Below are positions 1 through 1,810 of a stretch of DNA of 6,282 bases, piece by piece (the stretch's first letter is position 1; each line of letters begins with the position of its first letter). Location of the stretch: positions 1 to 6,282 of IMG/VR virus record IMGVR_UViG_3300029080_000086. One strand, written 5' to 3'. The position numbers and the translations under genes were made by a program. The notes beneath the pieces were generated by a model. That model did not search any database. It was not told the DNA's origin and saw only the letters and a program-made list of their open reading frames with translations. This stretch comes from a virus (Duplodnaviria; Heunggongvirae; Uroviricota; Caudoviricetes).

Positions 1-327
1 ATGGTCACTTTTGAGACAGTTATGGAAATTAAAATCCTGCACAAGCAGGGAATGAGTAGCCGGGCGATTGCCAGAGAACTGGGGATCTCCCACAATACCG
101 TTAAACGTTATTTGCAGGCAAAATCTGAGCCGCCAAAATATACGCCGCGACCTGCTGTTGCTTCACTCCTGGATGAATACCGGGATTATATTCGTCAATG
201 CATCGCCGGTGCTCATCCTTACAAAATCCCGGCAACGGTAATCGCTCGCGAGATCAGAGACCAGGGATATCGTGGCGGCATGACCATTCTCAGGGCGTTC
301 ATTCGTTCTCTCTGTCAGCGCCAGTGA
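1..327 (+). pseudogene. istA: IS21-family transposase IstA, N-terminal fragment (about 108 aa, helix-turn-helix region only)
   Basis: Translation [39 protein letters not shown]... matches the N-terminal HTH region of IS21-family IstA from memory. Full IstA is about 340-390 aa; here the frame stops at TGA 325-327 and unrelated IS3-like sequence follows, so the gene is 3'-truncated. The IS left end would lie upstream of the window. Confidence 0.75.
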
Positions 328-339
328 TATAAGACGGTA

Positions 340-519
340 ATGGGGATGCGGACGATTTCCTGGAACCAGAGTCGGGGTTCCGCAGGTGCGCGCACTCTGG
401 CAGATATGCTGACTCAAAATGGCATCCCGGTGAGCCGTTATCGTGCCGGGCGGCTGATGAAATACCTGAACCTGAGCAGTTGTCAGCCCGGAAAACATCA
501 GTACAAAAATGCCCGCTAG
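340..519 (+). pseudogene. IS3-family transposase OrfB, short internal fragment from the N-terminal region
   Basis: Translation ...[43 protein letters not shown] ends at TAG 517-519. The pattern (G-x-x-VSR-x-R-x-x-RLM, then basic residues) resembles the region before the catalytic core in IS3-family OrfB proteins. There is no catalytic domain downstream. Confidence 0.45.
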
Positions 520-583
520 GAGCACACCAGCCTGCCGAACCTGAACCACCCCGATTTTCCTAGAGAGTGTTTTATCTGTGAAC

Positions 584-768
584 TCAGGCTGCCAGATCAT
601 AGTTTCCGATAGAAGCATAATAATCTTTTTCTGCTTCTGCCGGAGGGATGTGGCCCAACCTTTCCAGTAATCGTCGATTGTTATACCACTCGACCCACGT
701 TAGTTTGGCCAGTTCCACTTCTGCACGGTTTTTCCAGCTCTTACGGTGTATTACCTCCGCTTTGTAAA
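584..768 (-). pseudogene. IS3-family (rve integrase-type) transposase, C-terminal fragment
   Basis: Reverse-strand translation ...[62 protein letters not shown] has the typical C-terminal tail of IS3-family transposases ([10 protein letters not shown]...G-IPP-E-E). It is convergent with the + strand fragment at 340-519 and lacks the catalytic core upstream. Confidence 0.55.
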
Positions 769-835
769 GCGTAGTGGATCAGTAATTCAGGACACCTCGA
801 AATCCTGTTAATGTTAAAACAGTGAAAATGAGGTG

Positions 836-1169
836 ATGCATACTCAAAACTCGTCGGACTAAACGTACCTTTTCCCCGGAGTTCAAGCTTGAAGCTATCG
901 AACAGGTGGTTAAATACCAGCGTGATTTCAGAGAAGTCGCGCTGGCACTCGAGCTCAACCCTGACCATTTGAGTAAATGGATACGGTTGTATAAGCAGGA
1001 ACTTCAGGGTATTGAGCCCGCTGGTAATGCTATTACCCCTGAACAACGCGAAATTCAGCAGCTTAAAGCGCAGATAAAGCGCCTTGAGATGGAAAAAGAA
1101 ATACTCAAGCAGGCTGCCGTGCTGATGAGCGAAATCCCCGGAAAGCTGTCGCGCTACTCACATGGCTGA
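836..1169 (+). pseudogene. IS3-family transposase OrfA (IS911-like organisation), frameshifted near the N-terminus
   Basis: Main frame from 837 gives ...TRRTKRTFSPEFKLEAIEQVVKYQRDFREVALALELNPDHLSKWIRLYKQELQ...ITPEQREIQQLKAQIKRLEMEKEILKQAAVLMSE..., an HTH plus leucine-zipper OrfA. The only upstream ATG (836-838, preceded by GAGG) is in a different frame and hits TAA at 860-862, so a 1-nt indel near 845-860 is likely. The computed ORF needs a GTG start at 906. Confidence 0.7.
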
Positions 1170-1312
1170 AAGCAAAGTGGCCAGTGCGGGTTCTTTGTCA
1201 TTTATTCGGTATTCACCGTAGCGTTTATTACGCGCAGGTGAAGGGTGAAGCGTCCTGTTAATGTGCAAAGAATTGAATTACGAAGTCGGGTGAGGGCTTT
1301 CCATGCTCTCAT
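1170..1312 (+). pseudogene. IS3-family transposase OrfB, N-terminal stub (truncated)
   Basis: Immediately after OrfA the translation ...WPVRVLCHLFGIHRSVYYAQVKG... resembles the start of IS3-family OrfB (L-C-x-x-x-G-x-x-RS-x-YY), then stops. The expected 280-aa catalytic domain is absent. The 3' boundary is approximate. Confidence 0.4.
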
Positions 1313-1370
1313 GTCAACGCCACGATGTTTGACCGTTATTTGCCATTTTCATGCCCGCTAAATACTTTCG

Positions 1371-1805
1371 TTACTGATGCTGTCCGCTTTCCACCATTTC
1401 ATCATCACTGATTGGCGTTGTGTTTTTGGTCAGCACTCCAGCTTTACGTTTCTCTTTTAACCGGTAACTCTCTCCTTTGATATTCAGCGTGGTTGAGTGA
1501 TGTAGCAGCCGATCCAGGATCGCTGTTGCCAGCACGTGATCTCCGAACATTTCTCCCCAGTCTGCGAACCCTTTGTTTGACGTCAGTATGATGCTCGCTT
1601 TTTCATATCGACGGTTCAGTAGCCGGAAGAACAGACTGGCTTCCTCTCTGTTCATCGGCAGATAACCTATTTCATCCAGGATCAACACCCGGGCATAACT
1701 CAGTTGCTGTAGCTGACGCTCCAGCCGGTTTTCCTGTTTCGCTTTCATCAGTGTCGCGATCAGTCTGTCCAGTGGCATAAACAGTATCTGGTCTGCACCG
1801 CCAGA
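1371..1805 (-). pseudogene. istB: IS21-family helper ATPase IstB, C-terminal fragment (Walker A region missing)
   Basis: Reverse-strand translation ...[85 protein letters not shown]... matches the conserved IstB C-terminal half. Stop is TAA at 1371-1373 (- strand). The N-terminal 100 or so residues including the P-loop are absent, and homology ends near 1795-1805 where phage sequence starts. Confidence 0.8.
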
Positions 1806-1810
1806 CTGTC

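Follow-up and report, generated by a model that had tools for sequence, protein, structure and literature searches.

Insertion sequence (IS) scars on the Shigella virulence plasmid and chromosome contain many truncated IS pieces of several families, lying in mixed orientation beside virulence or phage DNA, and the types that dominate the Shigella expansions are IS1, IS600, IS2, and similar elements. Patches of truncated, nested IS copies are also commonplace next to decayed prophages and on the virulence plasmids of enterobacteria, and they carry little biological weight. We analyzed a stretch with this general look in a viral record classified under Caudoviricetes (IMG/VR record IMGVR_UViG_3300029080_000086, positions 1 to 6,282; this whole stretch of 6,282 nucleotides [nt] is called the window below). 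Positions 1 to 1786 of the window consist entirely of truncated elements belonging to the IS21 and IS3 families. They are ordinary nonfunctional IS debris of an already known kind, which very likely lies at the join of plasmid-type DNA and a decayed lambdoid prophage and was built up in two stages.

The closest counterpart is a scar on plasmid pESC818 (NZ_AP029047.1), on the JNE-series plasmids, and on contigs of GCA_000601275.1 and GCA_900449765.1. It shares with the window the left neighbor, a piece of IS100, an end stub of an IS3-family element that we call IS-X, and pieces of further IS3-family elements denoted B, C, and D. In these plasmids, D is complete (1,258 bp), with an integrase pseudogene, repB, and parAB lying beyond it, whereas in the window D is cut at its nt 542 by the right end of an IS21 copy, beyond which lies the prophage remnant. 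pESC818 comes from an OgGp9:H18 strain obtained from milk in a large 2021 Japanese outbreak, the published account of which does not discuss the plasmid of strain ESC818 (PMC10540162).

Composition of the IS-derived stretch

Identities and coordinates of the pieces were established by local BLAST searches against fetched annotated reference copies, together with Pfam and NCBIfam scans (Table 1). The reference loci and contigs that were compared are designated by L-numbers, L001 being pESC818. BLAST E-values for the IS pieces run from 1e-45 down to 0, so that chance matches are of no concern. A six-frame list of open reading frames (ORFs) likewise has short ORFs resembling transposases over the first 1.8 kb or so and lambdoid phage genes thereafter. 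The original prediction, made from the letters of the window, had listed five transposase pieces under a title that counted six. All five are present in the order and orientation given there, none of them complete, and BLAST and profile matches confirm that every fragment is IS derived and that at least two families, IS21 and IS3, are represented. The total nevertheless rises to seven with two noncoding end stubs within positions 313 to 364. The extent of 1 to 1810 that had been assigned to the IS stretch also needs trimming: the stretch is real but ends at 1786, with phage sequence from 1785/1787 on, and the 148-amino-acid (aa) ORF that crosses this edge (1371 to 1817, minus strand) reads from the 3' part of istB into antisense phage DNA.

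No intact transposase ORF was found in the IS region by the ORF list, Pfam, or NCBIfam, and no piece has both of its ends; thus, nothing in positions 1 to 1786 can move or act. No Rfam family was matched anywhere in the window. For annotation purposes, positions 1 to 1786 should be masked as IS remnants. The window itself opens with an ATG and closes with a stop codon and was apparently cut at gene-call boundaries.

Junctions between the pieces

At the junctions 312/313, 541/542, 769/770, and 1311/1312, an exact IS terminus abuts an internal point of the preceding element; the exact termini at 313, 542, 770, and 1312 were set by the divergence of flanks among independent copies. The occurrence of an exact terminus at an internal point of a neighboring IS suggests insertion into a resident IS. 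At the breaks at about 360 to 364 and at 1785 to 1786, internal points of both partners are joined with 4- and 2-nt microhomology, respectively, which points to illegitimate deletion. The inverted repeats and target-site duplications that were to be sought at the inferred boundaries could be recovered only in part: four termini were located, but neither an end pair nor a duplication survives, a repeat search of positions 1 to 1900 having returned no meaningful target-site duplication or inverted-repeat pair and the IS region having no inverted or direct repeat pairs of at least 14 nt beyond chance. The view that insertions into earlier insertions were followed by deletion therefore holds insofar as there are four exact termini and two microhomology breaks, but these events mostly did not take place at this locus, 1,311 of the 1,786 bases having arrived preassembled.

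A block inherited with cof-pilus plasmids

Positions 1 to 1311 are 99.8 to 99.9% identical to a segment of pESC818 and its relatives, with order and orientation kept, and this block occurs in seven plasmids among the complete Escherichia coli genomes searched. In pESC818, it is flanked on the left by an ISL3 fragment and by cofR/S/T, which belong to a CFA/III-type IVb pilus operon, and on the right by the rest of D, the integrase pseudogene, and repB. The same context is seen outside the complete genomes. The 108-aa stub ORF at the left edge of the window is indexed in 40 blocks of an assembly collection, and it lies to the right of the cof operon in all 9 of the displayed loci that extend far enough to the left, at 99.8 to 100% identity. 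Metagenome contig OBVG01000868.1 (L014) matches window positions 1 to 1366 at 100% and continues leftward for 1,285 nt, the examined stretch being 99.5% identical to pESC818. It shows that the IS mosaic continues to the left of the window, with about 92 nt of the IS100 leader and left end, then an ISL3-family transposase fragment, and then cofR (L014, 1367 to 2651; L001, 3767 to 4000). The near-identical recurrence of the block in a cof-plasmid context suggests that it is inherited as a unit and that most of the insertion events did not occur at this locus. The block is a sharp lineage marker for pESC818-type cof-pilus plasmids; the sole features specific to the locus under study are the IS21 junction and the join with the prophage remnant.

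The junction of D with IS21 at 1311/1312 is also present in L014 and in a second metagenome contig, L029, the latter matching window positions 1 to 1451 at 100%, with six further similar places. In three related plasmid contigs (L023 from 19989 onward, L026, and L032), an intact D is accompanied by a minus-strand IS21 whose right inverted repeat (IRR) faces D from a point 8,677 nt to the right of the equivalent of window position 1311. The interval between D and IS21 in L023 comprises the 3' part of D, the integrase pseudogene, repB, parAB, and an IS4-type gene. Deletion of an interval of this type would give exactly the D/IS21 junction of the window, with loss of the adjacent replication and partition genes.

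A proposed two-stage history

Together, the piece identities, the termini, the junction positions, the recurrence of the block, and its context are compatible with a history in two stages, in which both the sequence of the events and the mechanism behind each junction are our inference. The first stage would have taken place in an ancestor, on a plasmid with the cof genes for a CFA/III-like type IVb pilus. There, the left end of a 1,664-bp IS21-ended IS-X unit may have entered an IS100 copy at istA nt 312, the IS629/IS1203-like C may have inserted into the ISEc31-like B, and the 1,258-bp IS3-family element D may in turn have inserted into C. Deletions would have stripped the far side of each nest, one of them reaching into B, via TGGA, from nt 24 of the inverted repeat (IR) of IS-X. 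The resulting 1,311-bp block, along with the ISL3 fragment further left, would then have been inherited as a unit beside cofR. In the second stage, presumably at this locus only, the IRR of IS21 would have been joined to D at 1311/1312. This could have come about by a fresh insertion of IS21 into D or, by another route, through an IS21-mediated adjacent deletion of 8.7 kb that took away the 3' part of D, repB, and parAB; the two are indistinguishable at this junction, and either would account for it. Finally, the IS21 copy was probably trimmed to 475 nt by an illegitimate join, with 2-nt microhomology, to a Qin-like prophage within its DUF1441 gene.

Linkage of the plasmid-type and phage-type halves

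Several points weigh against this history. The order of events is unprovable, one end per insertion survives, and no target-site duplication is readable. D and IS-X are unnamed, the Prokaryotic Genome Annotation Pipeline (PGAP) giving only "IS3 family transposase" for them. The source replicon may be a plasmid, a chromosome, or a cointegrate. Further, no independent contig spans from position 1311 through the IS21 piece into the phage, so that the linkage of the two halves depends on the window itself: L014 stops 55 nt into IS21 (at 1366) and L029 stops 140 nt into it (at 1451), while L005 begins exactly at 1312. Such breaks in or at the IS21 piece are what might be expected of an assembly chimera, in which a plasmid contig with IS21 in D was joined via the shared IS21 to a chromosomal contig with a 475-nt IS21 remnant at a prophage. 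The two halves also differ in their usual home, positions 1 to 1311 being found on plasmids and the phage segment having 17,630 of its 17,692 related places on chromosomes. The junctions of IS21 with the phage and of terminase with tape measure recur at 99.97 to 100% identity in three to four gut-metagenome contigs (L005 to L007 among these); neither was found in the complete E. coli genomes or in PLSDB plasmids, and a look-up with the terminase fusion protein yielded short metagenome contigs only. We consider a chimera unlikely nonetheless. The shared repeat, at just 475 nt, lies within the reach of read pairs or long reads, and both junctions are separately confirmed and carry the same IS21 variant, with 0 to 1 mismatch against the cof-plasmid copies and 6 against a generic copy. 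Even if the halves had been joined artificially, the other pieces would still be truncated and the verdict of IS debris would be unaffected. If the join is real, as the two-stage history has it, a plasmid-type segment has been fused here to chromosomal-type phage DNA, and the cof pilus region has lost its neighboring repB and parAB and may be integrated or cointegrated.

Comparison with Shigella-like IS expansion

The original prediction had taken the pattern for a hallmark of an IS-expanded, genome-reducing, Shigella-like lineage, which would have the mosaic built in place by repeated insertion in the chromosome of such a lineage. Lineages of this kind carry hundreds of near-identical copies of a few IS types across the genome, along with numerous IS-bounded deletions and pseudogenes. 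The nested termini are genuine, and the prophage next to them has undergone heavy deletion of the sort seen in degraded genomes. Shigella plasmids also carry IS21 and IS629-type pieces that match parts of the region at 97%, the Shigella sonnei plasmids sharing both IS629-like and IS21 segments. However, 1 to 1311 is a ready-made block, found at 99.8 to 99.9% identity on cof-pilus plasmids and on many metagenome contigs in a constant plasmid context, which is not that of pINV. B, C, and D are 6 to 13% diverged from their nearest full-length copies in the 5,426 complete E. coli genomes, which marks them as old relics and not as products of a recent burst, and the typical Shigella elements named above are absent from the window. 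None of the Shigella records in PLSDB has the window arrangement, the best coverage being 37%, in two separate pieces. The arrangement of positions 1 to 1786 as a whole is absent from the 5,426 genomes and PLSDB, where no record covers at least 80% of positions 1 to 1900, and from the GTDB representative genomes, where two exact-pattern scans gave no matches; Shigella chromosomes lie outside the annotated collections searched and are thus not directly excluded by this result. Close relatives come exclusively from E. coli and from metagenome contigs of the human gut. On the basis of these observations, and with the block being inherited on plasmids beside the cof operon, the Shigella-like origin is not supported, and we regard it as very improbable.

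There is next to no likelihood that the region is instead a single functional composite transposon or another organized mobile unit: the near-unchanged recurrence of 1 to 1311 in many samples could be a sign that the block is selected or moves as a unit, but there are no two ends of one element, no repeat pairs beyond chance, and no intact transposase ORF, and the block has neither bracketing IS ends nor duplications nor unrelated contexts, being always in one plasmid context with cofR as its constant left neighbor and, when uninterrupted, the 3' part of D and repB on its right, a constancy that argues for vertical inheritance with the plasmid and not for transposition. The single known composite element that was to be looked for among the database matches did not turn up; what recurs is a block that is not a transposon.

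TABLE 1 Features of the window in order of position
Feature	Position	Strand	Match or remark
IS100 (IS21 family) istA 5' piece, codons 1-104 of 340	1-312	+	98.1-98.4% identity over 313 nt
IS21-type left inverted repeat, outermost 28 nt	313-340	+	29/29 vs IS21 left end, L002 and L003
IS-X (~1.6-kb IS3-family element) left terminal IR, 24 of 25 nt, TGGGGATGCGGACGATTTCCTGGA	341-364	+	
ISEc31-like IS3-family element B, internal orfB piece (HTH_21 region)	360-543	+	87-90% identity
IS629/IS1203-like IS3-family element C, right end	542-769	-	93-94% identity, terminal IR included
Unnamed 1,258-bp IS3-family element D, left 542 nt: left inverted repeat, damaged orfA, orfB stub	770-1311	+	
IS21 proper, right 475 nt: intact IRR TGTCAACGCC at 1312 and last ~137 istB codons	1312-1786	-	
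DUF1441 gene, N-terminally truncated	1785-2224	+	PF07278 positions 19-146 of 147; 2-nt overlap TA with IS21
Large terminase (gpA type), N-terminal two-thirds, broken at 3613-3615	2224-3615	+	PF05876, 243 bits; PF20454 partial; 99.2% vs L012
Tail tape-measure gene, C-terminal part	3613-4468	+	PF09718; 99.2% vs L013 from position 1501; 3-nt overlap TAT with terminase
Tail gene M	4465-4794	+	Collinear with L013 at 99.2%
Tail gene L	4794-5492	+	Collinear with L013 at 99.2%
Tail gene K, C-terminally truncated	~5496-6129	+	Collinear with L013 at 99.2%
Tail-tip gene J, internal fragment	6128-6282	+	98.7% vs L013 5694-5848; 2-nt overlap AT with K

The IS21-family pieces

Both genes typical of the IS21 family, istA (a transposase with HTH and DDE domains) and istB (an AAA+ helper ATPase), are represented in the window, but by fragments only, each from a different element. 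The istA piece is assigned to IS100 by comparison with the copies in L002 and L011, which PGAP names "IS21-like element IS100 family transposase." It resembles IS100 in the 98% nucleotide identity of the istA 5' part, whereas only 312 nt of that element are kept. Its match to the profile NF033546 (transpos_IS21; E value, 9e-25; 87.8 bits) falls below the 160-bit full-length cutoff because only 104 istA codons are left. The 108-aa ORF on the plus strand at 1 to 327 consists of these codons followed by 4 codons of the next piece.

The istB piece belongs to IS21 proper. It scores 154.9 bits against PF01695 (cutoff, 24.1) and covers positions 121 to 232 of the 232 positions of NF038214. Like IS21, it has an intact terminus as well as high identity in istB 3' and IRR: positions 1312 to 1786 are 98.7% identical to the IS21 copy of L002 and match the L025 copy in 474 of 475 positions, and the copy on cof-plasmid contigs of the L023 type is identical over 339/339 positions (window 1312 to 1650). 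It keeps just 475 nt of the 2,130 nt of a full IS21, as seen in L002 and L025, and is an element separate from the IS100 piece. The terminus TGTCAACGCCACG at 1312 is identical to the right end of IS21 as found in L002, L011, and L005, and it is precisely at this point that the flanks part. The family-typical terminus (5'-TGT...) is thus seen at 1312, and an IS21-type left end is also present at 313. The window has no complete IS21-family element with both ends and a target-site duplication, and it has no partner ends. The 148-aa minus-strand ORF mentioned above encodes the C-terminal half of IstB, with its start inside the antisense phage DNA.

Three candidate relationships among these pieces were rejected. 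The istA and istB pieces cannot be halves of one IS21-family element, the istB of the window being only 67 to 77% identical to IS100-type istB. The IS21 ends at 313 and 1312 do not derive from one insertion: the flanking 4-mers (TCTC and CTCA) and the orientations do not fit, and the end at 313 belongs to the IS-X unit. Lastly, a 13-nt flank similarity to the left of IS21 with MEI008 (L003), considered as a shared junction, proved by alignment to be a chance likeness in an IS30 fragment.

The hybrid end stub and the IS-X unit

The 52-nt stub at 313 to 364, which combines 28 nt of an IS21-type left end with 24 nt of the IS-X IR, is the hybrid end of a 1,664-bp unit. The flanks diverge exactly at TGTCA (313) in the window, L004, L017, L018, and L019, and the stub is the left end of complete units in L018 (3001 to 3052), L021, and L022. 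It is present in 526 records from 498 of the 5,426 E. coli genomes, and at least five different sequences adjoin it on the outside. A reading of positions 313 to 341 as an IS21 left-end stub, which would leave 19 nt of filler unexplained, was dropped, the other loci showing the hybrid end of the IS-X unit.

Complete units occur at L018 3001 to 4664, L021 1501 to 3168, and L022 1501 to 3165, and near-full-length copies number approximately 860. Their core, about 1,606 bp long, encodes one transposase of 510 aa (NF033516, 425.8 bits), has perfect 25-bp inverted repeats TGGGGATGCGGACGATTTCCTGGAC, and is flanked by inward-facing tips that correspond to the outermost 27 to 28 nt of the left end and the right end of IS21. 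In L018, the entire unit lies inside an ISEc31-like element with a 4-bp duplication, GAGT, and L008 has the corresponding empty site, which indicates that the unit inserts as one piece, its IS21-type tips included. In L022, the inner IS-X element is turned around relative to the IS21-type tips, and a tipless copy exists at L020 1501 to 3106. We may tentatively entertain, though it is doubtful on present evidence, that an IS3-family element rides in a miniature IS21 shell, being moved in trans by the IstA and IstB of IS21, or that such a shell is its specific target. The 1,664-bp unit, which is widespread, was not found described when the full text of open-access papers and of bioRxiv preprints was searched for its sequence, a search that did not include an ISfinder-type reference; matches to the terminal sequences were irrelevant.

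The L018 arrangement also bears on how the stub came to adjoin B. The IS-X unit of L018 lies 28 nt upstream of the point at which B starts in the window, and in the window the IS-X IR is joined to B via a shared TGGA, the 4-nt microhomology at about 360 to 364. Deletion from such an arrangement would be the simplest origin of positions 313 to 543.

The IS3-family pieces B, C, and D

These pieces are assigned to the IS3 family because they share 87 to 95% nucleotide identity with copies placed in that family by PGAP. The family termini, 5'-TG...CA-3', are seen in C (TGAACC... at 542) and in the IS-X repeat (TGGGGATGCGG at 341). The left repeat of D pairs with the right repeat in the complete copy, its first base being C and not T (cGTAGTGG). 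In this family, orfA encodes HTH_Tnp_1 and orfB encodes HTH_21 and the rve DDE core, the two being linked by a programmed -1 frameshift. These domains survive as fragments distributed over the three pieces, and neither an rve core nor a readable -1 frameshift site survives in the window.

Piece B retains an HTH_21 domain (PF13276; 35.2 bits), contained in the ORF at 340 to 519, and matches positions 143 to 190 of the NF033516 profile. It matches the orfB of ISEc31 at 87.4% identity (L008, 2001 to 2183) and reaches 90.5% against unnamed IS3-family copies, being too diverged for a copy of the named element. Piece C has a terminal IR and about the last 61 orfB codons, and the minus-strand ORF at 584 to 718 matches the last 24 positions of NF033516 (346 to 369 of 369). 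In this terminal repeat and orfB 3' end, C resembles IS629 and IS1203 at 93.4 to 93.9% identity, again too diverged for a copy of either named element; identities above 98% are found only in the seven pESC818-type plasmids. B and C are relics of related unnamed elements, each shorter than 230 nt.

A complete copy of D, with imperfect IRs of about 39 nt, lies at positions 4770 to 6029 of pESC818, and the piece in the window is 94.6% identical to the copy in strain IAI39 (L010). The orfA ORF of D (906 to 1169) retains an HTH_Tnp_1 domain (PF01527; 34.5 bits). Three-frame translation shows that the start of orfA is out of frame and that an in-frame stop lies just upstream, and PGAP describes the plasmid copy, which belongs to a 1 to 1311 block with one mismatch in 1,311 nt, as "frameshifted; internal stop." IS21 is also found inserted in D elsewhere: L025 (GCA_900449765.1) has a full plus-strand copy at 11187 to 13316, at the equivalent of window position 1186/1187, with a 4-bp duplication, AGTG. 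The metagenome contigs L030 and L031 break at this same point of D. IS21 has thus struck element D at least twice independently.

The prophage remnant

Positions 1787 to 6282 are a Qin-like lambdoid prophage remnant with two internal deletions. The segment from 1787 to 3615 shares 99.2% identity with the DUF1441-terminase part of prophages of the O157 and Qin types (L012 and L016), and the region of genes M, L, and K carries the Pfam labels Phage_min_tail, Phage_tail_L, and NLPC_P60 on L005. Three illegitimate joins with 2- to 3-nt microhomology are seen, between IS21 and the DUF1441 gene (TA), terminase and tape measure (TAT), and K and J (AT). Portal, head, and tail-tube genes are gone from the prophage, as is about 1.7 kb between K and J. 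The K/J join recurs only in metagenome contig L005, no separate search having been made for it; beyond the end of the window, L005 continues with further tail-fiber fragments.

A cryptic prophage in the chromosome of E. coli CAVP819 (L015, 6441 to 7831, corresponding to window positions 2224 to 3614) has its terminase cut at the same nucleotide. Downstream of this break, L015 differs from the window, with tail gene M following within 20 nt. The two could share an ancestral break that was followed by further change, or the site could be one at which breaks recur.

The junctions have also given rise to artifactual ORFs. Besides the 108- and 148-aa ORFs described above, there are three on the plus strand: 2224 to 3621, which adds 2 tape-measure codons to the terminase; 3512 to 4468, which runs from out-of-frame terminase into the tape-measure frame; and 5455 to 6282, a K-J fusion. 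Such junction ORFs, the 108- and 148-aa ones among others, are called as proteins in public collections.

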